Shown in pieces: positions 1-19,239 of a stretch of DNA of 41,350 bases. The DNA is from a virus, in IMG/VR virus record IMGVR_UViG_3300033145_001228, positions 1-41,350 of that record. One strand, 5' to 3'. The translations under genes were made by a program, and so were the position numbers. A model generated the notes under the pieces. The model was not told where the DNA came from and did no database searches. It saw only the letters and a program-made list of their open reading frames with translations. Position 1 is the first letter of the stretch. Every line of letters starts with the position of its first letter.

Positions 1-114
1 CATATAGTGCTTCTAAGATGAACCTCTGTCGTGGCAGGACTAGCTGGGTAATTGTATATTCCAAGTTTGTAAATCCCAGCAAAACCTGCGCCGGCTTTTG
101 CGTCATCACCAATC
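1..114. repeat. Terminal direct repeat, copy 1 (identical to 41237-41350)
   Basis: Direct comparison: catatagtgcttctaagatgaacc...cgtcatcaccaatc is present at both ends of the window. Confidence 0.95.
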
Positions 115-1373: not shown

Positions 1374-2921
1374 TTAAGGTGTATACTTTTCCACCTCTAC
1401 TCCTTGAACCCAAATACTTAAACTGTCATCCACATTGGCTACAATATATGTATCAGAACCGTCGTCAGCGTTTAGAATTAATTTCTGGCCTTCATCTAAT
1501 AATATATCTACTTGAAAAGATTGGTCAGAAGAAAAATCGTTATCTGTTCCAACAACCGCTATAGTATCACTCACGTCGGGGATAGTTAATGTTCTTGTGT
1601 TCCCTGTTGTAATACCGCTTGCTTGAAAATCTACAATTTTAGTAATATCAGTTTCGTCAAATATTGTAAATTGATTGTCTGCAAAATTTGTTACAGTATT
1701 GGAACTTAAACTCCCCCCGCCTAATATACCAGCACGCAAGTCTTTTGTTGCTTCGACTGTCCATGTACCGCCACTTGCCACACTATGCTTAAATGTTATT
1801 CTTGCAACGAATATTCCTGTTGTACTGTCTTTCAGAAATTCTCTAGGGCCTGACAAGACATCGTAATTTTGAGAATCAGCAATAGCTGTAGATAAATTAT
1901 TATAACTTCCAGTGGGGAGATTCATAACCAACGGCGTATACTCACCTGTCTTGTTGGCAATTACACCGAATATAATATTAAAATATTTACCAGACATAGA
2001 ATCTCCATCTGCATCTGTAAGCTGAGTGTTCAGATTCGTTATATCGTCATATGGAGTCGTGTTATGGTTTACGACGTGCATAACATCTGTATCAGACATG
2101 TCTTTTGCTGGAACAGAATGGAGATGAGCTTGATAGGAAAATCCCGACGTAGTTTTAATATAAACATCATCAGGCGTGCCGACGTTTGTAACAATATCAA
2201 TAAAATTATCGCTTCCGTTACCGTCTATGCCTTTGAAATAGCCAGTGTGCATCCTGATGACTTCTGCCATGTGAAGCATATGCCCCATATTATTTGTACC
2301 TGCTAAATGGTCGTTCCAGTTCTGATTAATTAATGCACCTCGATTAGCAATATTTACAAAAGTTGCACTCTGAACAAAGAAGAATCCTACTTTGATGTGC
2401 TCTGTCGTGGGCCAAGCACTTGTTGATTTCGTAAGAACTTTTGTTGATTGAGGAATATATATCCAGTTTGCTTGCGGGGCTATATCACTTCCTGCGGTTA
2501 ATTCAATAGTGCAAATCGGAGTACAATCCAGCGGAGTATCAAAATCAGAGAATTGCATGATTAAATCACCGCCACCATTTGATTGCTCAAGAGTCATGTC
2601 AATAGTTGCACCATCGCTAGTTACAAAAGCGTCGAAGGTTTCTTTAAACGAACCATTGACAAATGTCCTCTGCAAGTATCTATTATCATGGTCTGTATTG
2701 GTTCCGGCTGTGTCCGGCATATCAGTAGCCGTTGAATGGACCGGCTGGATCCTTGTCCATAATCCGGTTGAAGAAAAGAATTGCAGCATATCCTCATCAG
2801 CTGCATTTATCGTTTCATCAAAATCACCTATTGAAGAGGTTGACCCAAATATATCAGCGCGGGCCAAAGGACAAAATAAAAACATAATCAAAATTGTAAT
2901 TATAAATTTATTTATCTTCAT
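1374..2921 (-). CDS. Fibre-like protein with Sec-type signal peptide (515 aa)
   Basis: N-terminus MKINKFIITILIMFLFCPLARA|D. The C-terminal part (NFADNQFTIFDETDITKIVDFQASGITTGNTRTLTIPDVSDTIAV) resembles motifs common in phage fibre proteins. Family assignment is from memory only. Confidence 0.55.
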   Translation of the reverse strand: MKINKFIITILIMFLFCPLARADIFGSTSSIGDFDETINAADEDMLQFFSSTGLWTRIQPVHSTATDMPDTAGTNTDHDNRYLQRTFVNGSFKETFDAFVTSDGATIDMTLEQSNGGGDLIMQFSDFDTPLDCTPICTIELTAGSDIAPQANWIYIPQSTKVLTKSTSAWPTTEHIKVGFFFVQSATFVNIANRGALINQNWNDHLAGTNNMGHMLHMAEVIRMHTGYFKGIDGNGSDNFIDIVTNVGTPDDVYIKTTSGFSYQAHLHSVPAKDMSDTDVMHVVNHNTTPYDDITNLNTQLTDADGDSMSGKYFNIIFGVIANKTGEYTPLVMNLPTGSYNNLSTAIADSQNYDVLSGPREFLKDSTTGIFVARITFKHSVASGGTWTVEATKDLRAGILGGGSLSSNTVTNFADNQFTIFDETDITKIVDFQASGITTGNTRTLTIPDVSDTIAVVGTDNDFSSDQSFQVDILLDEGQKLILNADDGSDTYIVANVDDSLSIWVQGVEVEKYTP

Positions 2922-3024
2922 TTTCTTTTCCGCAATACGGACACTTGTCTAAGTGTGAGCCATGAAGTTCTTTACATTGATCACAACAAATAATCACTGG
3001 ATCGTCTGTTACTTTGGTTTTCAA
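2908..3024 (-). CDS. Possible 38-aa zinc-ribbon micro-protein (TTG start)
   Basis: Open frame ..VIICCDQCKELHGSHLDKCPYCGKENEDK between two large genes. Its end overlaps the ATG of 1374-2921. Non-ATG start and no clear SD. Confidence 0.3.
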   Translation of the reverse strand: MKTKVTDDPVIICCDQCKELHGSHLDKCPYCGKENEDK

Positions 3025-3026
3025 TT

Positions 3027-4160
3027 TTAAAACCCATATCCTACTGTTACTGAGCCGCCACCGCCTGATTGTGTGTCGGTTTGATCTGCGCCCATGTTTG
3101 TATTATAGTCCCCAGTTAATCCGAAATTAGCTCCTGCACCAAAAATACCAACACCTTCTGCTGCTGTACTATCAGGTAGAGTGAAATCCCCACTTCCAGG
3201 GTTTGTTAATGTGATGTCTGAATCAATATCGTTTTGCCCTTCCGTTACATTTGAGTTACTTGAAGCGTCACCATCCCAAGAATTATAATCATATAAGTTG
3301 CTAGTGTATTCTGCTGTAAATGATACTGGCGTGGTACATTCATCAAAGAGATTATTTAAAAAGGTAGCATTGTTTCTAGTATTGCCATCAACGCAAGTGG
3401 TAGAATTATAAAACGTGTTGCCAATAATAGTTTCATTTGCGCTTGTTAGAAGAAGTCCTGTTGTGCAAGTATCCACAATATTTCCGATGAATGTGCCAAA
3501 TTGAGACATTTCTGCACATTGAACTGAATCATGCAAATAATTATTAATCCATGTTGCCCCCCAATTTCCGGTAGTAGTTATGTTTCCGTTATCGTCAGAA
3601 ATAATCTCACATCCAACAATATGTAATCCGTTTTCTGAGAAATGAACAGCTTGTGAAGAAGCGTTGGTCGAGCTATGGTCTATTCTAAGATTATACAGAA
3701 TTGAATCTACATCCATAGATACCCCATAGAATGCTCCTGTTTCAATATTTAGATTTGCAACTAGAAAATGGTCGTGAGGAGTTATCCTATAATCATTAGC
3801 TCCTGTTTGGAACAATGGCCTGTCCGAGCCATATGACCAATCAGCAGTTGTTGGCGGCTCTGCTGACGTTCCTGTTTTTACACCAATTAAGGCGCAAGGA
3901 AGTGCCGCAGTGCAGTTTCCTGTTGAAGCTAAACCACTTGTTATTGTATAAGTTCCATCTTCAAAGAAATATCTATCCCCTGCCTCTTGGCTACCTTCAA
4001 AGTCTGCTTCAAATTCTGAATAACTAAATGCAGAAGCCCAAGCCAAACCATCTTTCCCTGCGGCCCCTGCTACCGTTACGTAATAATCAGTTGCTGCACC
4101 CCAAGACATAGAGGGTATAAATATAATTAAGACAATTAATAATATACTTTTCTTATTCAA
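3027..4160 (-). CDS. Right-handed parallel beta-helix (pectate-lyase-like) protein with signal peptide; probable polysaccharide depolymerase
   Basis: Signal-like N-terminus MNKKSILLIVLIIFIPSMSWGAA. YYVTVAGAAGKDGLAWASAF start typical of beta-helix enzymes. Periodic motifs NLRIDHSS, IVGCEIISDD, INNYLHDS, FIGNIVDTC, IIGNTFYNS, FLNNLFDEC. Ends ..SVTVGYGF. Confidence 0.6.
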   Translation of the reverse strand: MNKKSILLIVLIIFIPSMSWGAATDYYVTVAGAAGKDGLAWASAFSYSEFEADFEGSQEAGDRYFFEDGTYTITSGLASTGNCTAALPCALIGVKTGTSAEPPTTADWSYGSDRPLFQTGANDYRITPHDHFLVANLNIETGAFYGVSMDVDSILYNLRIDHSSTNASSQAVHFSENGLHIVGCEIISDDNGNITTTGNWGATWINNYLHDSVQCAEMSQFGTFIGNIVDTCTTGLLLTSANETIIGNTFYNSTTCVDGNTRNNATFLNNLFDECTTPVSFTAEYTSNLYDYNSWDGDASSNSNVTEGQNDIDSDITLTNPGSGDFTLPDSTAAEGVGIFGAGANFGLTGDYNTNMGADQTDTQSGGGGSVTVGYGF

Positions 4161-4509
4161 TCACAGCCTCCAACCCCTCGTCTGTTATGAACTTTTCGAG
4201 CTGTTTGACTCTCGCATCAAGTTCTTCATAATAATTCAACTCAACAATTTCTTTTTCTGGTAGATAAATACTCTTATCAAAGGTATTGCTACCGTCAAGT
4301 AAACAGTTTATAACATTGCTTCTTATAAACATATTATTAATTACATTAGGTAGAGATGTATTCTCTTCCTCGCATATCATGTTCACCATAAAGAACATAT
4401 TTCCATTTGAGGCATAGTCAGCTTTAGGTTTTATGTTTTGTCTGCTGATAGTCGCTGCCAAGCAAACCCCACACATCATAAAAAATATAATCAAAGTCTT
4501 TCTTATCAT
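4153..4509 (-). CDS. Hypothetical secreted/anchored protein (118 aa)
   Basis: N-terminus MIRKTLIIFFMMCGVCLAA. Start/stop overlaps with neighbouring genes. Confidence 0.5.
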   Translation of the reverse strand: MIRKTLIIFFMMCGVCLAATISRQNIKPKADYASNGNMFFMVNMICEEENTSLPNVINNMFIRSNVINCLLDGSNTFDKSIYLPEKEIVELNYYEELDARVKQLEKFITDEGLEAVIE

Positions 4510-4512
4510 GTT

Positions 4513-4749
4513 CTATTTCTCCGAAAAATAAATGCTGCTGCCAGGCGGCAAGGCAAAACCTACATTATTTTCCCATTCAATATATTCCATAGCGTTAGCC
4601 CAAGAGGAACCACTTTTATCTCCCACACCTACATAGGCAACATATATTTCTTTTGGCTTTTTAATACTTCTAGTTTTCTCCAATGCTATTCCACCGAGAA
4701 GAAAAACCGTCAAACATAAAACTAATAAAACGCTTATTCTCTTAATCAA
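4513..4749 (-). CDS. 78-aa truncated paralog of the N-terminus of the beta-helix protein (remnant of a depolymerase cassette?)
   Basis: EIYVAYVGVGDKSGSSWANAMEYIEWE...PGSSIYFSEK aligns with DYYVTVAGAAGKDGLAWASAFSYSEFE...AGDRYFFEDG of 3027-4160. Has its own hydrophobic N-terminus and stops where the helix repeats would begin. Confidence 0.5.
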   Translation of the reverse strand: MIKRISVLLVLCLTVFLLGGIALEKTRSIKKPKEIYVAYVGVGDKSGSSWANAMEYIEWENNVGFALPPGSSIYFSEK

Positions 4750-4793
4750 TTTGTCCTCCTTTATAAAATTTTCAAAAAGTTTCTCATATTCTC

Positions 4794-5903
4794 CTAATCG
4801 TTATAACCATAAAATGATAAAGTACATTTAGTTACCGTTGCCGAGGATTCTATCTCGATACAAACTTGATCCCCCGCATCCCAGTCTGTTGTCATAGAAG
4901 TTAAAGAAGTATCGCTGGCAGAAACATCAGCAGATAGCGTTGGCTTCTCCGTTCCGGCTATGGAGTCACCATTTACTAATGGAGTGTCATTCCAAGTGTT
5001 TTTCCAAACATCTAATACTATACTTCCCGACTTATCACAATCAAAATACCATGCCGTAATCTTTTTATTGTTTGGTATTCTACTAGTACAAACAACCGGA
5101 TCAGTAATGCTTGCATCTATAGCAGTATCGCCATTCGTAATTACAAAATTGTGCATTATTGTCGCTTGATTGCTTAGGGCTGTTGATAACGCGGCAAAGG
5201 TGGTAAGGGCTGGCTCTTTATTATTAAACGTATCCCAATCTGTGTCGTTAAGATGTCCTGTCGTATCGGTATCTGCTACAACCGCTAAATGCGTAGCAAT
5301 AGCACTATTGATCTCTGTCGTGGCATCCGTACAGTTCTCTACTGCCCCTGCCGCATCAACCCCTAAAGGATATGAACCAGCCCCGCAATTTCCACCATTG
5401 GCTGCCAAAGCTGATGCCGTAGCACTCCTTAAATTTGCAACCTCTGTCACAGAGGCTACTACCAATGGCGGAGTTCCTGTTGCAACATCACTAGCAAAGG
5501 ACAAAGCCGTAATAATAAATGCCCCAACATCCCAACCAGCGGTCAATGGAACTGTACCATCGGCCAATAAATCTCCTGCCCCTGCCGCCGGACAATCTGT
5601 GCCATCTTCTAAGCATATTCCTTGAGTGTTTAGAGTTGTATCAACATGAAGATCACAGGAAGATGTTGAGCACTCAGTTGATGCAGTTCCAGGACTGGCC
5701 GCTTTAAACGCGTTACCTCCCTTACACACAAAAAGAGCCCCATCCGTATCAGAATCCGTATCCCAAAACTCATCACCAACAACACAAGTGGCCGGAACTG
5801 TTGTACCGGAAGGAGCCCGCAGAGGTCTACCGAATCCAAACTGAGCCTCTGCTACATGACCAACAAACAAGAACAAAATTAATAGAATTATTATCTTTTT
5901 CAT
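4794..5903 (-). CDS. Fibre-like protein with Sec-type signal peptide (369 aa)
   Basis: MKKIIILLILFLFVGHVAEA|Q. Internal LLADGTVPLTAGWDVGAFIITA and HLNDTDWDTFNNK motifs resemble phage fibre proteins (recognition from memory). Confidence 0.55.
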   Translation of the reverse strand: MKKIIILLILFLFVGHVAEAQFGFGRPLRAPSGTTVPATCVVGDEFWDTDSDTDGALFVCKGGNAFKAASPGTASTECSTSSCDLHVDTTLNTQGICLEDGTDCPAAGAGDLLADGTVPLTAGWDVGAFIITALSFASDVATGTPPLVVASVTEVANLRSATASALAANGGNCGAGSYPLGVDAAGAVENCTDATTEINSAIATHLAVVADTDTTGHLNDTDWDTFNNKEPALTTFAALSTALSNQATIMHNFVITNGDTAIDASITDPVVCTSRIPNNKKITAWYFDCDKSGSIVLDVWKNTWNDTPLVNGDSIAGTEKPTLSADVSASDTSLTSMTTDWDAGDQVCIEIESSATVTKCTLSFYGYND

Positions 5904-6259
5904 TATTGAACCGTTAATATTTTAATGTTAGCTGTTGCTCCTGAATTATTTGTTATAAAAATATTTATTATCTCTAATCCCATATCTCGCGGAATTTGAA
6001 GCTGGGCCTCAACATCCTTTAGAGTAATAACTGAATTACCAGTGTCATTAAACCTGATTGTAATGGTCTTGTCGCTTCTGATAAGACAGGCATGAGCCTT
6101 CTTCACGCTTGCAAAGGCATCCGCTTCATTATCGGAAACATCATAATTACTTTGACCATTATTAACCGTAAACTCAGCAGAATCATAGTTGTCATAAAAT
6201 TGCTGAGCCGTCAGCTTAGGAAGCTTTGTTGAATCATGAGCCTTCTTTTCTTTTCCCAT
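5903..6259 (-). CDS. Small beta-rich protein, paralog of 7154-7495 (118 aa)
   Basis: YDSAEFTVNNGQSNYDV...ITIRFND...FITNNSGATANIKILTV aligns with the 7154-7495 product. One-nt stop/start overlaps on both sides. Confidence 0.6.
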   Translation of the reverse strand: MGKEKKAHDSTKLPKLTAQQFYDNYDSAEFTVNNGQSNYDVSDNEADAFASVKKAHACLIRSDKTITIRFNDTGNSVITLKDVEAQLQIPRDMGLEIINIFITNNSGATANIKILTVQ

Positions 6260-7152
6260 TATTGACCTCTTCTCAGCTTAGTTTCCAGTGCTTTAAGTTC
6301 ACCTTGTTTAATCTCCAATTCATTCTGAAGATTCTTAAGATTCTTATCTTTAGCGTCGAGGTTAGCACGAACACCTTTTAATGATTCTTCTTTTCCTACA
6401 AGCTCTTTTTCAAACTTATCAAGCTTCTCAACCTTTTTATTGTAAGCCGCTTCTTTAGAATCAAGCTCTTTATCCCTTTCATCTAAAGCCATCTTTTCTT
6501 TCTTAAGATTGATCTTCGTTTGCTCAATTTCTGCATTGGCATCATTAATCCCTTCTGTTGCCTTTTCAAGATCAGCCCTTTCTTTCCCAATGCCTTCAGT
6601 CATATAACAAACATCCTCTTCCTTACTCTGCAATTCTTCTTCTTTTACAGAAAGATCTGTACTGAGGATATTTAGCCGGTTCTTTTCTTTTTCATTCTCA
6701 GCTTTTTGATCAATACACTTCTCATTATCCAGACTATATTGTTCCTGGTTAGAAATTAACTGATTCTGGTTTGACTTAAGATCATTTAAGTCTTTCCGGT
6801 ATTGTTTAAGCTTAGAAGATAGATCCGCATTAGCTTCATCAATACGTTTATTCTCTGCATCGGCAACGCGGGTAAATTCCTTATGATCCTTCTCAGCTTT
6901 AATTTTATAATCAGCAATAACCTTTCCCTGCTCCTCCTCTATTGCCTTAATCTTCTCGCTGGCCTTATCAATTTCAGCACTTACTGCAAAGAGCTCGTTA
7001 TTCTTCTGCGTAATTTCTCTTTCAAGATTGTCAGTATCAACAAACAGATCCTTATTATCTTCAAAGAAAGCGCCTACCTCATCAATAAGTTTAACAATTT
7101 GATCCTTAATGTTGACAAGCTTTTGATACTTCTTTAGGAAGTCTCCAATCAT
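6259..7152 (-). CDS. Long coiled-coil protein (297 aa, K/E/N-rich)
   Basis: Continuous heptad-like charged sequence with no hydrophobic core motifs. Tightly coupled to its neighbours. Confidence 0.6.
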   Translation of the reverse strand: MIGDFLKKYQKLVNIKDQIVKLIDEVGAFFEDNKDLFVDTDNLEREITQKNNELFAVSAEIDKASEKIKAIEEEQGKVIADYKIKAEKDHKEFTRVADAENKRIDEANADLSSKLKQYRKDLNDLKSNQNQLISNQEQYSLDNEKCIDQKAENEKEKNRLNILSTDLSVKEEELQSKEEDVCYMTEGIGKERADLEKATEGINDANAEIEQTKINLKKEKMALDERDKELDSKEAAYNKKVEKLDKFEKELVGKEESLKGVRANLDAKDKNLKNLQNELEIKQGELKALETKLRRGQ

Positions 7153-7153
7153 G

Positions 7154-7495
7154 TCAGTCTCCTTTTCTAACAGCTATTATTTTAATCGAAGCTGTACTGC
7201 CTGAGTTATTTGTTATGAACATATCCGTTATTTCCATAAGATCATCAAGCTCAAATGGTCTTGTTCTAGGAATGGTAACACCGCTGTTATTTGAGTTATT
7301 GAACTTGATTGTTATCTCCTCTGTTGTCCGGATATTTATTGTCGTATAAATCTTAAGCGAAACAAAAGCATTTGATTCATTGGCGCGCACATCATAATCA
7401 GACTGTCCGGTTGCAAGTGTAAACTCAATCGAATCGTACAGCCTCCCTAATGGCGGCTTGACCTTAAGTGAATCAAACGGACTATTTCCCCCCAC
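7154..7495 (-). CDS. Small beta-rich protein, paralog of 5903-6259 (about 113 aa, GTG start)
   Basis: YDSIEFTLATGQSDYDV...ITIKFNN...FITNNSGSTASIKIIAV. GTG at 7495 with AAAGG upstream. The longer track ORF (to 7720) runs through the preceding gene in another frame. Confidence 0.5.
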   Translation of the reverse strand: MGGNSPFDSLKVKPPLGRLYDSIEFTLATGQSDYDVRANESNAFVSLKIYTTINIRTTEEITIKFNNSNNSGVTIPRTRPFELDDLMEITDMFITNNSGSTASIKIIAVRKGD

Positions 7496-7883
7496 TTTTC
7501 TTACCTTTCTTCTTTTTTCTCTTTGCCGGTTTTTCTGTCTTATCCGCTTCAATGCCATGAGCATTGGCAGCATTTTCATGATCCTCTGATGAGGCCCCAT
7601 GATTATCATCAACCGAATCATCTCGCTCAGGTCCACTATCAGACGGAGATTCAAATTCTTTGGAAACATCTTCGCTCTTAGTTTCCGTAGCTGTTTTAAC
7701 TTCAGCAGGAAGAACCTCACAAATCATATTCCAATCTCTATCTCTCTGACCAAACAACCAATTAATAGCCTCAGCCGGATATTCCTTGATAGGAGTTTTC
7801 TTTGTGAATGTATACCGCTTACCGTTAAAATCCCAGGGAATCATATCCTCTGTGCCTCTGTACCTAATCCTTAATGTATCCAT
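7482..7883 (-). CDS. Hypothetical protein with acidic middle and KRKKKKGKK tail (133 aa)
   Basis: ATG at 7883 preceded by AAGGAGAAGATGAA. The track ORF start at 7943 lies inside the upstream membrane-protein gene. Confidence 0.55.
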   Translation of the reverse strand: MDTLRIRYRGTEDMIPWDFNGKRYTFTKKTPIKEYPAEAINWLFGQRDRDWNMICEVLPAEVKTATETKSEDVSKEFESPSDSGPERDDSVDDNHGASSEDHENAANAHGIEADKTEKPAKRKKKKGKKSGGK

Positions 7884-8917
7884 TTCATCTTCTCCTTTTT
7901 TGTTATTAAATAAAAACCAATTACAGCCATAATTGTTGGCCACATACGCGGAATTTCAAACGGATATTCCACAACCATAAGAACCATCAGCGCAATCATA
8001 GCAATCGTTTCATGATCAAACCGGATATTCTTAATAAAATCTCTCATAAACCATCCAATAAATAAGAATCCTGGCAAACCAACCGCAAATATAAATTGAA
8101 TCAAAGAGCTAAAAACATTATCCGCATAAACAGCTCCTTTTATAAATTGACTTGAAACAAAGGGAAATATACCTATGCCATATCCCTGTTGCGGACTATT
8201 AAAGATCATCATGATAGTTGGCTCCCACACTAACCATCTAATGTTCAAAGATTGAACAATCTGATCTTTAAACAATAAAAAACCAGAAATTCCGGTAATC
8301 ACAAGAAATATTCCGGATCCTATGTGTGAGGCGCGCTTAATTCTTAGAAAAATCATGAAAATCAGCAAAAACAATATCGTAACTTCTTTTAATGACAAGC
8401 AAACAACTACATATAATAAAGCCAGTAGAGGGTTAACTTTAATTGCAAAAGGTAGTGTTAAAGTGAGATATGTTGCCAGCCTGGGCCCTGAGCCCATCAT
8501 TCCACCTATTTCACCATAGCAAGGTAGATTAAAAATAGGGTTATATCCAATATTTTGAAGCGCCAATACAAAAATATTAACCAACCCACCCCATACCATG
8601 TATTTTAAAAAAACGTCGCTCCTAGAGGCATATAAAGCGATTATCCGGATTCCAATAAGAGATAAACATATCTTCAATGTTGCTGAGGTAATAGCACCAT
8701 CAAAGTTATGCCAAAACAATTGGAGTATTAAGAAAATAAGAAATATCCCCATAACCGGACAATTATAATGCCTCTTCGGTTTATCAATGAACGATGCGCC
8801 AACCAACGCCATTACAGCACAATAAAAGAATAAAACATTGAATCTTTCAAGATCAAACCCAGTTGTATAACAAATAGGGGATAACAGTAATATTGCCTTT
8901 AAGACTATATCAACCAT
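7871..8917 (-). CDS. Polytopic membrane protein of the O-antigen ligase / Wzy_C (PilO/PglL-type) family
   Basis: About 10 hydrophobic segments. RIKRASHIGSG and QQGYGIGIFPF resemble the Arg-containing loop and GxGxGxF motif of O-antigen ligase-like proteins. Confidence 0.6.
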   Translation of the reverse strand: MVDIVLKAILLLSPICYTTGFDLERFNVLFFYCAVMALVGASFIDKPKRHYNCPVMGIFLIFLILQLFWHNFDGAITSATLKICLSLIGIRIIALYASRSDVFLKYMVWGGLVNIFVLALQNIGYNPIFNLPCYGEIGGMMGSGPRLATYLTLTLPFAIKVNPLLALLYVVVCLSLKEVTILFLLIFMIFLRIKRASHIGSGIFLVITGISGFLLFKDQIVQSLNIRWLVWEPTIMMIFNSPQQGYGIGIFPFVSSQFIKGAVYADNVFSSLIQFIFAVGLPGFLFIGWFMRDFIKNIRFDHETIAMIALMVLMVVEYPFEIPRMWPTIMAVIGFYLITKKEKMKWIH

Positions 8918-8956
8918 TATCCCCTATATCCTCCTTCTATCTCGCGTTTCTATAAT

Positions 8957-9460
8957 TTAGAAGTCATACGTTACAGTTGCAAATACTTCCGTATCTATAC
9001 CAACAACAAATATACCTGTAGAAAATTGAGCTCCACCAGGAATATTAATATGATACGTTTCACCTGTTACAGCTATACTGACCTCGAATTTCGGAGTTCC
9101 AGTAGCACTTAAGGCATCATAAACTAGAACATAGTCAGCTGCGGATGTTGTAAGTCCACTAACCGTAATACTTGTTAGCCTTGCCGCACCTGTATGAACA
9201 AGCTTTCCCGCAGACATCTCTGAACCAACAATAGATGTTACAGTCTTTGGATATTCAAAAACGCTTGCCGAACCACGATTGTCAATCTCTAAAACCTTAC
9301 CACTCCGAGCGCCACCGATCGCAGTTGTTTGAGAAAACCCTTGATCGGATCCAGCAGTCCTGATATTCCTTCCGGTTGTTACTGTCGCATCACCGAAAAC
9401 AAAGGCCGGAACAGCCAACAACATTATAAGAAAAATAACAAAAATGAGCTTTTTATTCAT
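8957..9460 (-). CDS. Secreted beta-rich protein directly after the capsid gene (167 aa); possible small outer-membrane barrel
   Basis: MNKKLIFVIFLIMLLAVPAFVFG|D. Alternating-hydrophobic strands. C-terminus ..VFATVTYDF has a terminal Y-x-F like an OMP beta-signal. Confidence 0.45.
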   Translation of the reverse strand: MNKKLIFVIFLIMLLAVPAFVFGDATVTTGRNIRTAGSDQGFSQTTAIGGARSGKVLEIDNRGSASVFEYPKTVTSIVGSEMSAGKLVHTGAARLTSITVSGLTTSAADYVLVYDALSATGTPKFEVSIAVTGETYHINIPGGAQFSTGIFVVGIDTEVFATVTYDF

Positions 9461-9470: not shown

Positions 9471-10796
9471 TTATATAGTTGATGGGTTAGCGGAGTAAAC
9501 TTTCATATTTATGATACCGGCTGCGCGACTAAGACGGCTGTCTTTTCGCAGAGCTTGACCATAATATGCCTCGATGCCTAAACCAATCCCCATACCATAA
9601 TCTTTCTTCTGGCCGATAGGACCTGGCTTATCACCTAATGCGCGACAAACTGATTGCGCGCCAAAACCAATTACAGTAGCAATATTTCGCTGTGTAACCA
9701 GCTTGTCAATAACATGAGATGCAGCTGTGGTACTTGAAACGCCTCTTGTCAACCCTGTGAAACTATTCTTGCCTTTACCGCTATAAGAAATAATTTCATC
9801 TTCAACCTGTAAGGATCCACTTGATGCAAAATAAATAGTGAAGTCCGGCTGAGTTGAAGTTGCTGTGGTTGCCCCACCAACAGACAAGGTTGTGGCCGTT
9901 GTCGTTAATGTTGCAAAAACAGTTGATTCAGGTCGAAGCGGTGTACCTTGAGGAATCGGAAGTAAAGAATAATAGGTATAAAGCACCATATTCTTAAACA
10001 CACCAATTGCTCCTTTGAATAGAGGATGATCACCGTCTCCGTCAAACCTCTTCAAAGCATTTTGTATCGATTGAACAAATACTGTATTCTGATTCAAGCG
10101 ATACTCTTCAACTTCACTGAAAACACAACCATAAATAGGAACCTTACGGCCGTTGTTAAGCTTTGCAACAATCGGCAAAGCTCCCTTACGCAACAATGCT
10201 AAACGCACAAGGTCCAACTCAGTTGGCCCAAACACATCACCATCGTCAGCATTTAATTCACCTACCGAGGATTTGCTATTAGCAAAGATTGTTTCATTGG
10301 TATCAGCTGTAATCAAGGTGAAGATGTCAGCATCCATCTTACGGCTCATCCAATCCTTCAGAAGAACCCCTGCTGATTTAACCTGGCTGAAGTTAGCTTG
10401 ACGATCTGCCTTCTTCGTGATACCAACTGCATGACGAACAAAATCTGCTGATACAGTGAATGTTCCCACTGACAGAGATTCCTCGTTTCCGAGTAACTGA
10501 TTTTCACCGGTAACACCAGTTCCCATCAGCTGTGAAATGACACTAAAACTTAATTGATCACCTTTTTGGCGTAATGGACCGGTCTTGTCGATAACAGGCA
10601 TCATTGTTCCTTCTGAACCTGTCAGCGCTCCCCAAAAGGAGTCTCTGTTGCCATCAGCAAATACTCCGTCAGCCCAAAACTCTGGAATGACATCATCAAT
10701 ATCAGCAACGCCGGTTACAACCAAACTATCAAGTGTGGATACACCTGATTGGCACATCAATATACTTCTAAACAGATATGCAATTTTTATGAACAT
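9471..10796 (-). CDS. Major capsid protein (HK97-fold family, DUF4043-like)
   Basis: Position directly after the scaffold gene. The block KGDQLSFSVISQLMGTGVTGENQLLGNEESL matches the conserved N-terminal region of this capsid family (from memory). 441 aa. Confidence 0.8.
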   Translation of the reverse strand: MFIKIAYLFRSILMCQSGVSTLDSLVVTGVADIDDVIPEFWADGVFADGNRDSFWGALTGSEGTMMPVIDKTGPLRQKGDQLSFSVISQLMGTGVTGENQLLGNEESLSVGTFTVSADFVRHAVGITKKADRQANFSQVKSAGVLLKDWMSRKMDADIFTLITADTNETIFANSKSSVGELNADDGDVFGPTELDLVRLALLRKGALPIVAKLNNGRKVPIYGCVFSEVEEYRLNQNTVFVQSIQNALKRFDGDGDHPLFKGAIGVFKNMVLYTYYSLLPIPQGTPLRPESTVFATLTTTATTLSVGGATTATSTQPDFTIYFASSGSLQVEDEIISYSGKGKNSFTGLTRGVSSTTAASHVIDKLVTQRNIATVIGFGAQSVCRALGDKPGPIGQKKDYGMGIGLGIEAYYGQALRKDSRLSRAAGIINMKVYSANPSTI

Positions 10797-10813: not shown

Positions 10814-11890
10814 TTAAATGTTTTTCTTGTCGTGTTCCTCCCGCTCCTCTTCAGAAAGTGCAAGATATTCTTGCTTTGTTAACTTACCGCCTTCTTTCTC
10901 TGACTTATCAGAAGATCCATCTACCGGACCAACAATCTTCTTTCCGGCCTTGCCCTGCTGATAACCTTCTTTCTTCGCGGAACCACTTCTTTTAAGAACA
11001 ATTTGAAGTTCAGCAGCCGCTTCTCTGGCTGATTTTAACTCTCCATAAGCATCTTTACCTTGATACTTTTGTTGCCAAATTTCAGTGGCACGATCATAAA
11101 AGGCCTGGTTGAATACTTTGTTTGCTGCCTTCTTACCCTTAGAAAAATCCTCTCGATTGCCAGGATCAAGCTCCGGATACATCTCATCCAAGATTCCGTT
11201 AGCAGTTTCTTGATCAGCAAGAAATTTAGTAACCGCAGCTTTATTCTTTAATGTTACCTGCTTAGTATTAAAGAAACCTTGATCAACGGCATCTTGAGCC
11301 AAAATTGAAAGAAGCTCAACAAACGTGTTCCCATCTTCTTCTTTGTCAAAGAAACTAGACAGTTTTTTCTTGTGCTCGTCGGTGAATTTCTTTTCGAAAG
11401 ATTTTGTTTCTTTCTCTTTCGATGGTTCTTTCTCAGTAAAGGTGATATTCCCATCTTCGTCTGTGCTTATCCCAATCCCTGACTTATCCAAAGCAGTACG
11501 TAAATTGGAAAGATTACCTTCCGTAGCACCCATCTTTCCAGCACGATTTTGATAAGCCTCCCACAGTTTATCAGGATCATCACCAAATTCACCGTATTTT
11601 CCATCAGCTTCAGGTTCTTCTTCCTTATCCTTTTCAGGGGAAGCTTCCTCTTCGCCTTTAGATTTATCTTTAGCGCCGGCCGATTCTTCTTTATCCTTTT
11701 CAGGAGATTCCTCGCCTTCGGCGTTAGGATCCTTTTCTTTTTCCTTACCCTCTTTTTCTTCCTTACCTTCTTCCTCTTCACCCTTTTCACCATCATCAGG
11801 GTAAACCGTCTGACCATCCTTAATTAATCCTCTCTCATCAGAGGTAATGTTGAATAGAAGGTTTAGAATTGGTTTTAAAAAATAAAACAT
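10814..11890 (-). CDS. Scaffolding-like protein (358 aa, E/K-rich low complexity plus helical C-terminus)
   Basis: Immediately upstream of the capsid gene. Strong SD (AAGGAGCAATAT-ATG). Extreme Glu/Lys content. Carries the shared N-terminal leader. Confidence 0.6.
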   Translation of the reverse strand: MFYFLKPILNLLFNITSDERGLIKDGQTVYPDDGEKGEEEEGKEEKEGKEKEKDPNAEGEESPEKDKEESAGAKDKSKGEEEASPEKDKEEEPEADGKYGEFGDDPDKLWEAYQNRAGKMGATEGNLSNLRTALDKSGIGISTDEDGNITFTEKEPSKEKETKSFEKKFTDEHKKKLSSFFDKEEDGNTFVELLSILAQDAVDQGFFNTKQVTLKNKAAVTKFLADQETANGILDEMYPELDPGNREDFSKGKKAANKVFNQAFYDRATEIWQQKYQGKDAYGELKSAREAAAELQIVLKRSGSAKKEGYQQGKAGKKIVGPVDGSSDKSEKEGGKLTKQEYLALSEEEREEHDKKNI

Positions 11891-12253: not shown

Positions 12254-12487
12254 TTAACCTAAAAACTTAACTAACGACTTAACGTATTTACAAGATGCTT
12301 CAATCATTCCTTTGGTATATCTATCAGTTTTAACTCTACAAATTTCCGGTCGCTCATAATAAATCGAACACAAATTATCATCATTCAAATGTTTACAAGT
12401 TCCATCACCGCGATCCAGGTCCTTAGAAACTAACCTAACGTATCGACAACAGTCTCCGCACTTTTCGCATTCCCATTTCATACCCAT
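12254..12487 (-). CDS. CxxCxxCC (YkgJ/UPF0153, formerly FliB-named) putative Zn/Fe-binding protein
   Basis: CEKCGDCCRYV ... CKHLNDDNLCSIYYERPEICR matches the family signature. The second ATG (12481) forms an ATGA overlap with the stop of the A24 peptidase gene. Confidence 0.7.
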   Translation of the reverse strand: MGMKWECEKCGDCCRYVRLVSKDLDRGDGTCKHLNDDNLCSIYYERPEICRVKTDRYTKGMIEASCKYVKSLVKFLG

Positions 12488-12861
12488 ATAAAAAATAAAC
12501 TCGGTATCAAAACAAATGGCGTAAACGGTCTAGGTTTAAATAAGAACGTATTCCTATGATAGTATATATTAAGAGCAAATGCAAACAATAAAATTAAAAA
12601 AGAATAATTCCCCATGAAAGCACCTACCATTGCCATCAGTTTTACATCCCCTCCGCAAAACGCACCTTTAGAAAAGATCAGAGCTCCAATCAAAAACATC
12701 AACAAAGCATAATCCCAATTACCAGTAAAATATATCCCAACCGCAATAGCCGGCAACACAATCACATTAGGAATAATCAATCTCTTAATATCACAAACTG
12801 TCAGAACAAACATAATTAATATAAATATCAGCGTCGGAAAAGACAAGTTAAGCTCTCCCAA
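12478..12861 (-). CDS. Minimal A24-family (prepilin peptidase / TadV / FlaK-like) membrane aspartyl protease, 127 aa
   Basis: Both catalytic-Asp motifs are present: VCDIKRLIIPN (first Asp) and CGGDVKLMAMVGAFMG (GxGDxKL). About 4 hydrophobic helices. No methyltransferase domain. Confidence 0.75.
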   Translation of the reverse strand: MGELNLSFPTLIFILIMFVLTVCDIKRLIIPNVIVLPAIAVGIYFTGNWDYALLMFLIGALIFSKGAFCGGDVKLMAMVGAFMGNYSFLILLFAFALNIYYHRNTFLFKPRPFTPFVLIPSLFFIWV

Positions 12862-14501: not shown

Positions 14502-16520
14502 TTATTTGCTTGCTTCTTGTCCTTGTTCCCCAGCCCCAGCACGATTTACCTCCAATCCTTCTATTTGCTCAGAAGCGCGATCAATGATGCGCTCATTAGC
14601 TCTCTGTTTACTTTTAATTGAAGCCCGCTCCTCAATATTCTTCATTTCTGTAATAATTGCTTCTCGCGTAGGAATAAACTTCTGCCAATCCTTATGGCCT
14701 TTTGATAAAAGATTGTCTTTAAGAATCTCCCAAGTATGTAGCAAACTACCGGCAACCATTGGCTGAGGCAATAACCTATCCATAAGATCATCAGAAATAG
14801 CAACCTGAAGCTGTTTATTAGAGCTTAGGCTGGTTCCCTTCCAAACAAAATCAAACTGTCCGGCCAAATCGTCTTTCTTCCAATACCGCTCAACATCCTT
14901 ATCCTGAAACTGTTGCATATTCGCATCAGTCGGAAATACAATCTCACCATCATCCCCGCGAATACGGCGCTCCAAACCAGGCGGCATATCTTCATGATAA
15001 TAATCTACGGTCCACTTAGCAATCTTCCTAAGCAGAATATGAACCCGCTGGACAAAGTTGTCAAGGCCAATATTGCCCTCAGCAACCGTTAAATCAACCT
15101 CGCCCTTAGTCTTTTGCCCGCCCTGCTGCCTTGCTGTTCCTGTTTGGAAGATAGAGATATTTGATAATCTTTCAGCAAAATTCAACAATGAAGCCTCAAG
15201 ATCAATACTAATTGCTGCTACCTCACCAACATTTAAAACCCTAATATCACCAGCGTTTTGTTCCTCCCATATCGCGCCAGGAAACACTTCCGGCCGCTCC
15301 CAATCCTCACCAGTGAGAGTTTTCTTCTTAACGAAGATCTTCTGCATAGCAATGTTGGCATTATTCATAATCGTGTTGTGAAGAGTATTTATCTCCCGCT
15401 GAGTATTCCAAAGCTTCTGACAAAGCGACCGACCCCAAAAATGCTCAGTCTCTTCATACATACCGCGAATATACACCCGCTCAGGAAACGGATTCCGATC
15501 ATGATACCAGTGGCTTATTGAAAGCAGCTCCTTAGCCTTAAAATCAATCTGACAGAATACTTCCTGCTCAATAGCATCCTTGTCCTCAAAATCAATTTCT
15601 TTCTGTGAATTGAATGGAAGTCGGCCATACCAATTGTAACAGGGCCTTAGAATGGCTCTGTGAGCAACAACTTTGTTGAATCCCTCAACATTCTTCTCCA
15701 TGTTGTTGTTTTCAACAGATTTCACACTATCTTCAATAAATCTGCCCTGCTTTGCCTTCATCCTCATATCATTGATCGTAAGCCAAAACCTATTACCTTC
15801 CCAATGCGGTCGCTTTGCGCGCTTCGCATTTCCGGCCCATACATAATCACGAAAATTAATATACTCTAGCTGAGGACCGTCTATAAGCTTCACATCCTCA
15901 GTAACAAACACATCCCGCTTACCGGAAGGTGTAAATCCATCAGATATGAGCCCTAAACTCTTATCCATAGCCTCTGGATCATCCGGAAGAATGTCAGCTG
16001 ATTCTCCGGTTTTATCTTTTGTAAAAGTATTTGCCTCTTCAATCGTAAAGCGCCGATCAAATTCCTGTGTAATATCATACCTTAAAACAGCAAACGGAAG
16101 TTTAATCATCTGCTTTATAAAGTAATTTGTATTCTCAAACAAAAGAATAACCTCACGCATGATCCCATCAACAAAATCCGTTACACCATCTGCCTTGTCC
16201 ACATCAGCCGCTTCCTCACCAACTGCCTGAAGATATGGCTCCTGGCTGAATAAAATCCTCATGGCGCGCGCGTGGATAGCATCAACCATCCATTCTGTCA
16301 TAGGAATGAAATAATCAGCTGCATTGTACCAGGGATAATCAGCTGTTGCTCCTGAATCCATATATTTAGTTATTTGAGCATATTGGCGCTCACATCGGCG
16401 GGCCATCTTGTAGACTATTTGATTTTGTGTGCGGGATACTGTTATTTCCTTTTCAATCACCTGAGCTATTATCTTAGATTTGGCTCGATCAATTTTGATC
16501 TCAAATTTCTTTTCACGCAT
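14502..16520 (-). CDS. Portal protein
   Basis: 672 aa. Downstream of TerL and upstream of scaffold/capsid. N-terminal region (..YPWYNAADYFIPMTEW..) resembles podovirus head-tail connector proteins. Confidence 0.75.
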   Translation of the reverse strand: MREKKFEIKIDRAKSKIIAQVIEKEITVSRTQNQIVYKMARRCERQYAQITKYMDSGATADYPWYNAADYFIPMTEWMVDAIHARAMRILFSQEPYLQAVGEEAADVDKADGVTDFVDGIMREVILLFENTNYFIKQMIKLPFAVLRYDITQEFDRRFTIEEANTFTKDKTGESADILPDDPEAMDKSLGLISDGFTPSGKRDVFVTEDVKLIDGPQLEYINFRDYVWAGNAKRAKRPHWEGNRFWLTINDMRMKAKQGRFIEDSVKSVENNNMEKNVEGFNKVVAHRAILRPCYNWYGRLPFNSQKEIDFEDKDAIEQEVFCQIDFKAKELLSISHWYHDRNPFPERVYIRGMYEETEHFWGRSLCQKLWNTQREINTLHNTIMNNANIAMQKIFVKKKTLTGEDWERPEVFPGAIWEEQNAGDIRVLNVGEVAAISIDLEASLLNFAERLSNISIFQTGTARQQGGQKTKGEVDLTVAEGNIGLDNFVQRVHILLRKIAKWTVDYYHEDMPPGLERRIRGDDGEIVFPTDANMQQFQDKDVERYWKKDDLAGQFDFVWKGTSLSSNKQLQVAISDDLMDRLLPQPMVAGSLLHTWEILKDNLLSKGHKDWQKFIPTREAIITEMKNIEERASIKSKQRANERIIDRASEQIEGLEVNRAGAGEQGQEASK

Positions 16521-16595: not shown

Positions 16596-16880
16596 TTATT
16601 TTCCGAACAAACTCATAATTGAGTTTATTATACTGAATCCTTTAATGTTAACAACCCCCATTGCATAGGCACTTGCTTTCGCGGTGTCAGAATTATCAAG
16701 ATTAAAAGCCCCTATCTCTGCACCAAGATCAATATGCTTAGATGTAAAAACAATATCATCAGATTTGACCTTGATACCTAAATCCATTTCATCCAACATT
16801 TCAATATTGTATGCAAACGCGGGTGAAACTACTGCAAACATCAACAACATTACTACTGCGATTACAATTACTTTCTTCAT
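16596..16880 (-). CDS. Small secreted protein between TerL and portal (94 aa)
   Basis: MKKVIVIAVVMLLMFAVVSPAFA|Y Sec-type signal. SD AGGAGG upstream. Confidence 0.55.
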   Translation of the reverse strand: MKKVIVIAVVMLLMFAVVSPAFAYNIEMLDEMDLGIKVKSDDIVFTSKHIDLGAEIGAFNLDNSDTAKASAYAMGVVNIKGFSIINSIMSLFGK

Positions 16881-16996: not shown

Positions 16997-18325
16997 TTAC
17001 ATATTATCCATCGATCCAGGCTTCTTCTTTTCTCCTCGCTGTCCAGTAGACTTCAGCGGCGAAAATCTATTAACTGCAACATACTCTAACGCGTTCATAG
17101 GATGTTCATAAAATCCATCCTTAAAAGGAATATCAAATTTATAGGTTGATTGTTGCCCTTCTTTTTTGACAGGATAATGATACCCTCCTAAAAAGCCATC
17201 ATTAATTATTCTACAACTAGGGTCTACTACGATTAATGGTAATCCACTCTGCAATGTATTTATCTTACTCTCAATAATCTCTTTACGCAAGCGATATTCT
17301 GAAACTTTAGTATGGATGAAAATTTTCTTTTGCTGTAGTATTTGATGTGATGTTTGTTCTGACTTATCATTAACCTGATGAAATGCCGGATCTCCGAAAT
17401 ATCTAATGTTGGCATTAGGAAAATTCTCATTTAAAAAAGGAACAACCTGAAGCTCCGCAAACCTCTCAGTTGTAATGTCCGTTCCCATGAGCTCACGCAA
17501 AATCTTCCAATACGGCCCATCGATCTGAGTTACCACAAAAGCTTGATGATGGTAGCCAGGATCCCAACCACAATCAATCGGAAGCTGAGGATTCCAACTG
17601 CATTTACGCTTGTGAACCATCTCTATGTAGCCCTCATAGTACGGCTTACCATCCGGCGTGAAGCCATATTGCCCTTCCAGGTACTTTTTACGCCAGGATG
17701 GGGGTAAATGCTCTAAAGATTCTATGTAATCAGGCGGTAAATGCTCTTTATTCTCATAAGTCGAGGCATGAAAGGTAGCATGGCCAGGGTTGTTTTCAAG
17801 CTCAAATACCCTATAAATCCAGTGATCCTCATTAGGCGGGTTTGATACAAGCCACCCGCAGCGCCTATCTGAGAGGGTTGAGGATAAGCGGCCCTTGAGA
17901 TATTCAAACATAGTCTCTTCAATCTCTTCAGCCTCATCAATAAAAAACCAAGACAAATTCAAAGATCCGAGCTTTTTACCATTCTTCAGATGCCGGTAAA
18001 GGATTGTTGAGCCATTCCTGAGCATAATCCTATGTTCGGTCCGGTGATGTTCTTTTACAAAATCTTCAGGAATAACTTCGTCAAGGAGTGTTTTAATCGT
18101 GGTATCACGCAAGTCAACATAATCCTTGCGGAATATAACGCCGGTACAGCCAGGATAGGCAAGGCATTGTTTAAATACTTCAATACAGCCGGCATAAGTC
18201 TTACCCGCGCGCCATGCACCTATGTATAATCTGTACTTTGCTTCCGATAAATGAAAGTCTGATTGCTTTGGAAGAGGTTCGTAATCAATATCTAATGCCA
18301 AATTATTCTCTTGAGTTTCTGGCAA
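16997..18325 (-). CDS. terL: Terminase large subunit
   Basis: Walker A GAWRAGKT, Walker B WFFIDEAEE, C-terminal nuclease region with GWDPGYHH. 442 aa. Confidence 0.9.
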   Translation of the reverse strand: MPETQENNLALDIDYEPLPKQSDFHLSEAKYRLYIGAWRAGKTYAGCIEVFKQCLAYPGCTGVIFRKDYVDLRDTTIKTLLDEVIPEDFVKEHHRTEHRIMLRNGSTILYRHLKNGKKLGSLNLSWFFIDEAEEIEETMFEYLKGRLSSTLSDRRCGWLVSNPPNEDHWIYRVFELENNPGHATFHASTYENKEHLPPDYIESLEHLPPSWRKKYLEGQYGFTPDGKPYYEGYIEMVHKRKCSWNPQLPIDCGWDPGYHHQAFVVTQIDGPYWKILRELMGTDITTERFAELQVVPFLNENFPNANIRYFGDPAFHQVNDKSEQTSHQILQQKKIFIHTKVSEYRLRKEIIESKINTLQSGLPLIVVDPSCRIINDGFLGGYHYPVKKEGQQSTYKFDIPFKDGFYEHPMNALEYVAVNRFSPLKSTGQRGEKKKPGSMDNM

Positions 18326-18907: not shown

Positions 18908-19191
18908 ACATTTTCCTTTTCAAATAATTTAATAAGCGCACCAATGCAATTCTCAACATCTACTTCTTCCAGCGGGGCGTTTAATTGAGTAATCAAAATA
19001 TACTCTATCTGGTGTCTTTCCGGCATTTCCGCCCTAGCCTTTATAATCTCTTGTTTGAGATAGGGGTCAAGGGCTTTAGCTAATTCCTCAGTAGATATAT
19101 CAGATTCATACCAAACCATTAAATCTCTATGGATGTCTTTCCCATTATCAAGCAATATTCGTTCAATCTCCGGCTTCTTAATGTCTTTCAT
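18904..19191 (-). CDS. Hypothetical protein (95 aa)
   Basis: ORF with GGAGG upstream; acidic, helical. Confidence 0.6.
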   Translation of the reverse strand: MKDIKKPEIERILLDNGKDIHRDLMVWYESDISTEELAKALDPYLKQEIIKARAEMPERHQIEYILITQLNAPLEEVDVENCIGALIKLFEKENV

Positions 19192-19239
19192 AGAACCTCC
19201 AATAAAGACCTTAGTAGGTCTGAGTTAAACCGTTTAGGT

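Follow-up and report, generated by a model that had tools for sequence, protein, structure and literature searches.

Here we report that a late-operon block in the genome of an uncultured short-tailed phage (podophage), at positions 1374-9460 of the IMG/VR virus record IMGVR_UViG_3300033145_001228, consists largely of proteins with predicted Sec-type signal peptides. The record was analysed over its whole length of 41,350 nucleotides, which we call the window. The preliminary description of this DNA had listed seven open reading frames (ORFs) with such N-termini, six in the block and one between the terminase and portal genes; all seven lie on the - strand where they had been placed and have canonical n-h-c anatomy, and comparison with other phages indicates that the phenomenon is broader than that description held. 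Judged from their sequences, these N-termini are genuine Sec-dependent, signal-peptidase-I signal peptides under selection, and the predicted export module is conserved in the phage lineage. Our favoured reading, to which we give overall a probability of about 0.5, is that the block serves as an export module, expressed late and directed at envelope glycans; that the proteins are in fact exported and cleaved, which glycan they target, and what biological purpose this has are the parts of it that we infer.

All seven proteins begin with M-x-K/R-K/R (net charge +2), followed by an uncharged stretch of 15-21 residues with a computed hydrophobic core of 10-18 residues. Read directly from the sequences, the core up to the helix break spans 11-16 residues in six proteins and 19 in the ORF at 4513-4749. 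The predicted cleavage sites are ARA|D, WGA|A, CLA|A, GIA|L, AEA|Q, VFG|D, and AFA|Y, and at five of them (ARA|D, WGA|A, AEA|Q, VFG|D, and AFA|Y) a Pro or Gly break stands 4-7 residues ahead of the small-x-small site. Type I signals were defined by a charged n-region of 2-8 residues, an h-region of about 7-15 residues, and a helix breaker with small residues at -3/-1. Neither a lipobox, [LVI][ASTVI][GAS]C, at the end of the h-region nor a twin-arginine (RR) motif in the n-region occurs in any of the seven sequences, and no Gly or Ala separates the basic start from the core, which directly follows K/R (or S/T/F) in the window proteins and all of their relatives. The absence of a lipobox, of RR, and of Gly/Ala at -1 excludes lipoprotein, twin-arginine translocation (Tat), and prepilin-type signals; for want of Gly/Ala at -1, the signal-peptide proteins were also ruled out as substrates of the A24-family peptidase that the phage encodes. 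Cores this short suit a cleaved signal better than a stable membrane anchor, and a basic start with an 11-16-residue hydrophobic core and an AxA site would engage the signal recognition particle (SRP) or SecA in any bacterium.

Signals were called with our own rule-based heuristic. It was positive for 9 of the 56 window genes and for 6 of the 12 genes in the block, compared with 73 of 1486 genes (4.9%) in 79 other phage loci; against this background, P(>=6 of 12) = 1e-5 and P(>=9 of 56) = 1.5e-3. Shine-Dalgarno motifs, found ahead of 34/54 window genes, back five of the seven signal-peptide starts, both TTG starts included, and are weak or not clear at the starts of the ORFs at 4794 and 1374. 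The Cys content adds a further line of evidence: two of the signal-peptide proteins, SP369 (4794-5903) and SP377 (3027-4160), have 12 and 7 Cys residues, whereas the five largest tail/internal proteins have none, a pattern typical of extracytoplasmic proteins. The O-glycosylation motif of Bacteroidota, D(S/T)(A/I/L/V/M/T), was only slightly and not convincingly enriched among the signal-peptide proteins. Outside the block, an 85-aa protein at 20404-20661 has an anchor-like N-terminus.

Relatives of the lineage came from independent groundwater and sediment metagenomes (L071, L072/73, L074/75, L078-L082, and L084; 53-88% identity in the major capsid protein, MCP), and their gene layouts were compared as far as each contig reaches. 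Signal-peptide proteins stand at matching positions in every lineage member fetched. The shared order begins with an A24 peptidase, a scaffold protein, the MCP, a small signal-peptide protein, and, in six of eight relatives, a WaaL/Wzy-like membrane protein; it continues with a protein of ~85 aa, one or two proteins of ~115 aa, a coiled-coil protein, and two to four large signal-peptide proteins. Holin-like and lipoprotein genes follow the latter in L074, L079, and L080, and a homologue of the window gene at 38382-39212 closes the order in L072, L079, and L080. The region had been described as the main accessory region of the genome, which fits the large signal-peptide proteins, a variable cargo; it does not fit the small signal-peptide protein, the ~85-aa and ~115-aa proteins, and the coiled-coil protein, whose genes recur in all relatives with contigs long enough to include them.

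The small signal-peptide protein, SP167 (8957-9460, - strand; 167 aa, signal VFG|D), is encoded directly after the MCP gene, and a signal-bearing counterpart occupies the same position in L071, L072, L074, L078-L081, and L084. Its homologues number 12 in the protein collection and one in a fetched locus, and all 13 sequences of the family, the window copy included, have an n-h-c signal in which the (F/L)A|D(A/T)T site is conserved. Mean pairwise identity is 29% in the signal segment and 46% in the mature part; kept despite this faster divergence, the signals evolve as functional ones do. The C-terminal ~100 residues are predicted to form a jelly-roll beta-sandwich, where AlphaFold2 (AF2) gives a predicted local distance difference test (pLDDT) score of 80-87. 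Foldseek returned weak matches (E~1e-3) to the coat jelly roll of satellite tobacco mosaic virus (STMV), Ena3A, and CBM6, together with many uncharacterised Caudovirales proteins of 90-125 aa, at target-normalised TM-scores of up to 0.81.

Next to SP167, the gene at 7871-8917 (- strand) encodes a polytopic membrane protein of the Wzy_C/O-antigen-ligase (WaaL) superfamily, 348 aa long with ~9 transmembrane (TM) segments, which adjoins the SP167 homologue in the six relatives noted above. PF04932 is matched by five of the seven members of its family (best E = 1.7e-7), the window protein itself being without a Pfam match, and the family profile matches the WaaL structure 7TPG with E = 3.7e-4; R227 is invariant in the family alignment. 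In the two relatives without a WaaL-like neighbour, L079 (17073-18494) and L080 (18550-19980), a protein of 473-476 aa that has 7-9 TM segments is encoded further downstream, where it immediately precedes the homologue of 38382-39212.

The remaining conserved genes of the block, all on the - strand, encode proteins without signal peptides. The protein at 7482-7943 is conserved over its N-terminal ~85 residues and has an extra charged tail in the window copy; homologues of 84-144 aa hold the same position in L071, L072, L074, L079, and L081, and, as its first 73 nt overlap the gene at 7871-8917, translation probably begins at an internal Met, M21. The neighbouring beta-rich protein of ~113 aa (7154-7495), a paralogue of the protein at 5903-6259, shares 64% identity with a separate 116-aa gene product of L079 and 49% with that of L081. 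Its ORF was listed as 7154-7720, which is most likely over-extended, the real start being an in-frame GTG at 7495 that overlaps the TAG stop of the upstream gene. Joining of 7482-7943 and 7154-7720 by a programmed frameshift was considered and dropped, since the relatives have two separate genes and the GTG at 7495 suffices. The coiled-coil protein (6259-7152, 297 aa) has no Pfam match; it is 31% identical to a 297-aa homologue at the same position in L071, and the position is held in L072, L078, L079, and L080 by proteins of 263-289 aa with no BLAST similarity to it. Finally, the beta-rich protein at 5903-6259 (118 aa) is 74% identical to its L071 homologue and also occurs in L078 and L080, with tandem paralogues in L072.

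The preliminary description had taken three of the signal-peptide proteins for fibres or a beta-helix depolymerase, and this is supported in so far as SP377 falls into a beta-helix family and two others, SP369 and SP515, into modular fibre-like families. SP377 (3027-4160, - strand) has a mature part of ~355 aa; its family numbers at least 572 representatives (E <= 1e-3). The signal is present in 72 of the best 150 family members; of the remainder, most begin exactly where the mature protein would ('MAAATMYVT...', 'MAAATMYVTVAGAG...'), and a few have extra length. In one signal-less member a ribosome-binding site is present and an in-frame stop lies five codons ahead of the start, so that this form is genuine; it lies on a 47.7-kb phage contig whose fetched locus is without a convincing signal-peptide protein. 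SP377 itself has no Pfam match at E <= 0.01. Its relatives (30-50% identity) match Pfam NosD (best 2.6e-10), Beta_helix (3.9e-9), and DUF5123, and the family profile finds weak matches in the PDB to a parallel beta-helix protein, an alginate lyase, NosD, and AlgG (best E = 0.002). These relatives' matches and weak profile matches weakly point to a right-handed parallel beta-helix of the carbohydrate-active type. No particle-attachment domain was recognised in the family, which starts at the helix cap, nor in any of the proteins at 1374-2921, 3027-4160, and 4794-5903, and no muralytic domain was found in the block.

SP515 (1374-2921, - strand; signal ARA|D) carries at residues ~85-450 a widespread domain of ~370 residues with 275 matches at E <= 1e-3 in metagenomic phages, the best 119 relatives being 41-57% identical. 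Eight residues are invariant (E174, H175, N201, N203, D204, H214, R223, and H266), and the core is modelled by AF2 with a pLDDT of ~90. SP369 (4794-5903, - strand; signal ...VAEA|Q) is a modular, fibre-like, Cys-rich protein that over its signal and the ~56 residues at the start of the mature part, a conserved Cys pair among them, shares 58-64% identity with a signal-bearing L071 protein of at least 1021 aa. Its C-terminal ~100 residues reappear in L071 and L079, and in L052 on a protein that has no signal. Sequence and profile searches with SP515 and SP369 against the PDB found nothing.

Three small proteins complete the set, all on the - strand. SP78 (4513-4749, 78 aa), with a TTG start, a strong AAGGAGG motif ahead, and a hydrophobic N-terminus, clusters by BLAST over its mature part with the product of 3027-4160 and with that of L001 12845-14269; by this similarity it is a shortened copy of the SP377 N-terminal cap, which may be a paralogue in decay or a small fragment that is anchored. 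With a core of 19 residues, its N-terminus may be an anchor and not a cleaved signal. SP118 (4153-4509; signal MIRKTLIIFFMMCGVCLA|A) and SP94 (16596-16880; signal ...VSPAFA|Y, strong AGGAGG ahead), encoded between the terminase large subunit and portal genes, have no family match and no homologue in the fetched loci. No gene lies between the terminase and portal genes in L071, L078, and L080.

Signal-rich stretches also occur in unrelated uncultured phages, namely L001 (8/27 genes; a different capsid family), L019 (5/12), L026, L046, and L037. Within the part of the structural module that was fetched, several of the largest proteins in these phages bear signals, among them those of 1150 and 906 aa in L019 and those of 1424 and 715 aa in L037.

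Every gene of the window is on the - strand. The genome is complete, circular or terminally redundant, and ~41,236 bp long, since the first 114 nt of the window (1-114) are repeated at its end (41237-41350). The circular order runs from the early genes through the terminase, portal, A24 peptidase, scaffold, and MCP genes to the block, then to three tandem paralogues and the tail/internal proteins. Among the virion genes are those for the terminase large subunit (16997-18325, 442 aa), the portal (14502-16520), a scaffold-like protein (10814-11890), and the MCP (9471-10796), which matches Pfam Phage_capsid_3 and phrog_334 'major head protein'. Similarity to Bbp10 of the podophage BPP-1 (24% identity over 41%, E = 6e-36) is seen in a 1483-aa protein, and a virion protein at 36844-38388 has an amidase-like domain at its end and no signal. 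The signal-less fibre candidates elsewhere in the genome are a C1q-domain protein and the three tandem paralogues, which lie at 663-1364, at 40518-41207, and in an ORF of ~226 aa across the junction (- strand, from ~655).

Megablast of 25 kb against 50,697 isolated phages gave no nucleotide match, tblastn of SP515, SP369, SP377, the A24 peptidase, and the WaaL-like protein against the same 50,697 records gave no match, and when two window proteins were looked up by exact sequence, no further contig came to light; the MCP matches isolated phages at identities of just 23-27%. No integrase was seen in the window.

Several further features of the window, all on the - strand, deserve mention. The early region encodes, ~2 kb upstream of a small terminase-like gene, a 702-aa protein (20918-23026) with TPR repeats and a GT2 glycosyltransferase match just short of the Pfam cutoff; it is kept in L078 (1090-3222, 37% identity) and may be linked to the WaaL-like protein. 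Two overlapping low-complexity ORFs at 19188-19500, (ALAM)n and (GSGY/GSGD)n, arise from the same repetitive DNA. The five largest tail/internal proteins, those free of Cys, are encoded at 28465-36571 (1483, 219, 284, 244, and 270 aa), and two small ORFs in the tail/internal stretch, 34438-34758 and 36546-36854, have 4 and 6 Cys. The terminase large subunit of L071 (1156-3555) has 799 aa compared with 442 aa in the window, and its Hom_end/LAGLIDADG matches indicate an intein or homing-endonuclease insertion that the window protein is without.

The phage also encodes a type IV leader peptidase (Peptidase_A24; 12478-12861, - strand, 127 aa, PF01478 E = 1.8e-11). Its catalytic Asp motifs, D24 in 'CDIKRLIIPN' and D72 in 'GGDVKL', are both kept in 7/7 lineage homologues, which are found in L071, L074, L078, L079, L080, and L082 (family range, 119-149 aa). 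The scaffold gene follows it immediately in most relatives; a small CxxC gene intervenes in the window and in L071. This gene, at 12254-12487 (- strand), encodes a small CxxCxxCC zinc/iron-chelating-domain protein (PF03692) and overlaps the end of the A24 gene, its L071 counterpart being at 6646-6924. The scaffold (7/7) and the MCP (8/9, with one ending in Ala) start with a hydrophobic or amphipathic leader of 14-22 residues that ends in D-E/Q-R/K-G and is kept in the MCP and scaffold genes of L071-L084. Leader-bearing proteins of the window are those at 9471-10796, 10814-11890, 32916-33575, 33578-34432, 34762-35496, and 38382-39212; a regular expression for the motif, run over the whole proteome, hit four further tail/internal proteins, each at residues 5-8 only. 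No canonical prohead protease was recognised in the window, and the leader proteins are candidate substrates of the A24 peptidase, a possible virion maturation protease. In S. aureus phage 80alpha, capsid and scaffold protein share an N-terminal leader that is removed by the host protease Prp; in the window, by comparison, the candidate protease is the phage-encoded A24 enzyme. A literature search on A24 peptidases in capsid maturation found nothing relevant.

As to the host, no tRNA genes were found in the window, and a search of 185,579 species genomes with the capsid profile found no prophage. The SP515 domain is present in contigs of metagenome-assembled genomes (MAGs) of Flavobacteriaceae and Ignavibacteriales, and it is a module common to many phage lineages. 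Two overlapping genes in L074, the first for a protein whose N-terminal part has a hydrophobic segment and the second for a small lipoprotein, are spanin-like and thereby suggest that the host has an outer membrane. Shine-Dalgarno sites are little used in Bacteroidota. With such sites at 34/54 genes and Q at +1 in only one of the seven signal-peptide sites, a Bacteroidota host, which the x|Q sites of related loci had brought into consideration, was judged unlikely for the window phage; under the Bacteroidetes Q-rule, Gln is exposed at the first mature position (PMC5837995). Predicted x|Q sites occur on proteins of 140-1424 aa in L019 (5309-13919), L037 (2978-15596), and L036 (4804-5226), and because they are as expected under this rule, they suggest that signal-tagged fibre-like proteins occur in Bacteroidota phages too.

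Under the favoured reading of the block as an export module, capsids would assemble in the cytoplasm while the host Sec system moves other phage proteins across the cytoplasmic membrane. The cargo would comprise the small jelly-roll protein, the beta-helix protein of carbohydrate-active type, and the modular Cys-rich fibre-like proteins, which would there meet the phage-encoded WaaL/Wzy-like membrane protein. Their job would be to bind, cut, or re-model envelope glycans, be it O-antigen, capsule, or wall polymers. The phage's own receptor would be destroyed or masked, so that later phages are excluded and fewer progeny are lost on debris, and the envelope would be loosened for release. Export across the cytoplasmic membrane is very likely in view of sequence anatomy, conservation, and the Cys pattern. 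The function on envelope glycans is more tentative; we favour it because of the enzyme-like beta-helix family, the adjacent WaaL-like protein, the GT2-TPR protein, the signal-less fibre candidates, and the lysis-type neighbours in relatives. Members of the SP377 family would be free enzymes rather than tail spikes, because they have no attachment domain and occur with or without the signal.

A number of observations weigh against this reading. The catalytic loop of ligases such as WaaL and PglL, H-[NSQ]-x9-G-x-x-G, is without its His in most of the WaaL-like family: where the H-x10-G motif has His, the window protein and five of its six relatives have Phe, and only P0127 keeps the His. Because of this replacement the enzymatic role of the protein is uncertain, and it should not be classed as an active ligase. 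In SP167, SP369, and SP515 no enzymatic domain was identified, and a comparison of the SP515 core with PDB folds gave no match (best E = 0.013, probability <= 0.33). A signal is carried by just 10/120 and 12/~70 of the SP515-family members examined (~10-17%), and signal-less SP515 relatives occupy the tail-fibre position in many phages. The C-terminus of SP369 matches phrog_10330 'virion structural protein' (E = 1e-5), and its conserved mature N-segment combined with a shared C-module is the modular pattern of tail fibres. The block lies within the structural operon, with capsid genes on one side and tail genes on the other, and a promoter and terminator search found nothing above chance that separates it from the operon. 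SP167 holds the position of the jelly-roll cement protein of BPP-1.

Several of these points return in the main alternative, which we consider unlikely and by which the large signal-peptide proteins, and perhaps SP167, are virion parts that mature outside the cytoplasm and are attached at lysis. It would account for the placement of the block between capsid and tail genes in one operon, for the make-up of SP369 with its variable middle between the conserved N-segment and the C-module, for the tail-fibre position of the SP515 family, for the jelly roll of SP167 at the cement-protein position, and for the signals on the structural-module proteins of 1150/906 aa in L019 and 1424/715 aa in L037. 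Late attachment is physically possible, given that purified P22 tailspikes join spike-less heads in vitro; attachment after lysis would, however, be inefficient by dilution, and no tailed-phage precedent is known. The genome moreover has signal-less fibre candidates, the beta-helix family is without an attachment domain and has a signal-less form in a locus without a convincing signal-peptide protein, and SP167 has no sequence similarity to the BPP-1 cement protein, which is itself without a signal. A wider version would couple virion morphogenesis to the envelope twice, through Sec-exported fibre, spike, or decoration proteins that join at lysis and through the A24 peptidase trimming the virion leaders, the exported proteins forming disulfide bonds outside the cytoplasm and possibly having their glycans handled by the WaaL-like protein; we regard it as rather improbable.

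We rate as similarly doubtful the proposal that the N-termini are uncleaved signal-anchors, by which the proteins would be tethered to the outer face of the membrane and form a complex with the WaaL-like protein for superinfection exclusion, lysis control, or as a membrane site of assembly. The 19-residue core of SP78 and the anchor-like N-terminus at 20404-20661 would agree with it, as would the polytopic membrane protein as a conserved neighbour, and the membrane-embedded A24 peptidase beside the scaffold and capsid genes hints at membrane-linked steps. Five of the seven proteins nevertheless have the anatomy of a cleaved signal, with a core of 11-16 residues, a Pro/Gly break, and an AxA-type site, and the cleavage motif (F/L)A|D(A/T)T is kept in the SP167 family. 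The preliminary description had offered export, uncleaved anchors, and an envelope-associated assembly step side by side; the evidence at the level of sequence favours export with cleavage over the other two.

Quite improbable is the view that the proteins are ordinary virion components assembled in the cytoplasm, with hydrophobic N-termini that serve as propeptides or assembly tags. The block does lie within the late operon, other virion proteins of the phage bear a removable-looking N-terminal leader, and MCPs of P. gingivalis phages have been flagged as signal-bearing and judged likely to be cut by a prohead protease (PMC10367356). That other leader differs, however, in being amphipathic and ending in D-E/Q-R/K-G rather than having n-h-c structure; the charged start, core, and AxA site of the block proteins would engage SRP or SecA, and their Cys-rich composition speaks against cytoplasmic folding. 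A chance run of hydrophobic N-termini or a set of wrong start codons, for which the two TTG starts and the lack of a clear Shine-Dalgarno motif at the 4794 and 1374 starts might be cited, is hardly credible at P = 1e-5 against the background, with Shine-Dalgarno motifs at five of seven starts including both TTG starts, and is already contradicted by the conservation of the signals in homologues from independent contigs.

Particle assembly in tailed phages is taken to be cytoplasmic. The lineage described here breaks the signal-less rule for their proteins with a conserved late-operon block largely of predicted signal-peptide proteins, and similar blocks are seen in L001, L019, L026, L037, and L046. 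Some phages would thus routinely put large carbohydrate-type and fibre-like proteins into the host envelope. If the proteins strip or mask receptors, they would amount to a new way, rich in proteins, of excluding other phages and protecting progeny, and would be a source of secreted enzymes active on glycans; if instead they become part of the virion, tailed-phage assembly would need an extracytoplasmic branch. The beta-helix family offers a natural experiment, one protein with and without a signal. Leader removal by the A24 peptidase, if true, would define a new class of virion maturation protease.

That tailed-phage fibres normally have no export signals, as the preliminary description assumed, is also the expectation in the literature, where the absence of a signal peptide has been used as an argument for the phage origin of a fibre-like protein (PMC6199706). 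Our literature search found no direct report of signal-peptide-tagged tail fibres or exported depolymerases in tailed phages, and papers that it brought up otherwise give counts of 0-2 signal peptides per phage genome. The P. gingivalis prophages of Matrishin et al. (2023) have five scattered Sec/SPI-signal genes of unknown function in temperate phages, which the authors read as adapted to the host general secretion system and able to modify the envelope (PMC10367356). They resemble the window in being tailed-phage genomes with several Sec/SPI-signal proteins of unknown function; unlike our work, that paper has no conserved structural-operon block, no large fibre or beta-helix proteins, and no WaaL-like partner, and the window phage differs in being rich in Shine-Dalgarno sites and having mostly D or A at the first mature position.

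Sec-exported and signal-anchor-release endolysins, such as Lys44 of the Oenococcus phage fOg44, Lyz of P1, and R of phage 21, are the established case of phage proteins using an N-terminal signal. They have been reviewed (PMC6116005). Like the predicted cargo of the block, they are late proteins that use host Sec through an N-terminal signal and have an envelope target before or at lysis. Unlike that cargo, there is one per phage and it has a muralytic domain, a type of domain not found in the block; the amidase-like domain of the window phage is on the signal-less virion protein at 36844-38388.

Exclusion and receptor masking are known from Llp of T5, Cor of phi80 and N15, and Ltp of TP-J34, and serotype conversion with Wzy-type polymerases from Salmonella phage epsilon15 and Pseudomonas phage D3. 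These systems, too, consist of phage-encoded exported or membrane proteins that alter or mask a receptor, and the conversion genes of epsilon15 adjoin the tailspike gene much as the Wzy_C/WaaL-superfamily protein of the window stands beside fibre-like genes. The known systems are, however, small lipoproteins or single membrane proteins, mostly of prophages or expressed early, whereas the block has no lipobox, is late, and encodes proteins of up to 515 aa (more than 1000 aa in relatives) in a genome in which no integrase was seen; its WaaL-like protein is without the catalytic His.

Tailspike depolymerases such as P22 gp9 and the K1F endosialidase share with SP377 the right-handed parallel beta-helix, in the case of SP377 a predicted one. 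Tailspikes have an N-terminal particle-binding domain and no signal, while SP377 has a signal and no extra N-terminal domain, and about half of its family starts at the helix cap. SP167 invites comparison with Bbp16, the jelly-roll cement protein of the Bordetella phage BPP-1, a distantly related podophage; both are small proteins of the jelly-roll fold class encoded directly after the MCP gene. Bbp16 nevertheless has no signal peptide, the BPP-1 structure is outside the top 50 Foldseek matches of SP167, and homology with the cement protein was ruled out at the sequence level (hhalign probability 0.1%). Virion proteins made with Sec signal peptides are known from filamentous phages, whose coat proteins (pIII and pVIII) are assembled at the membrane (PMC4823517). 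Those phages belong to another realm and morphology and extrude the virion through the envelope, whereas the window encodes a terminase, a portal, and an MCP of the tailed-phage type. Sec export of phage proteins is itself known; none of these precedents is a late-operon block of large fibre-like and beta-helix proteins such as the one that the window phage and its relatives are predicted to export.

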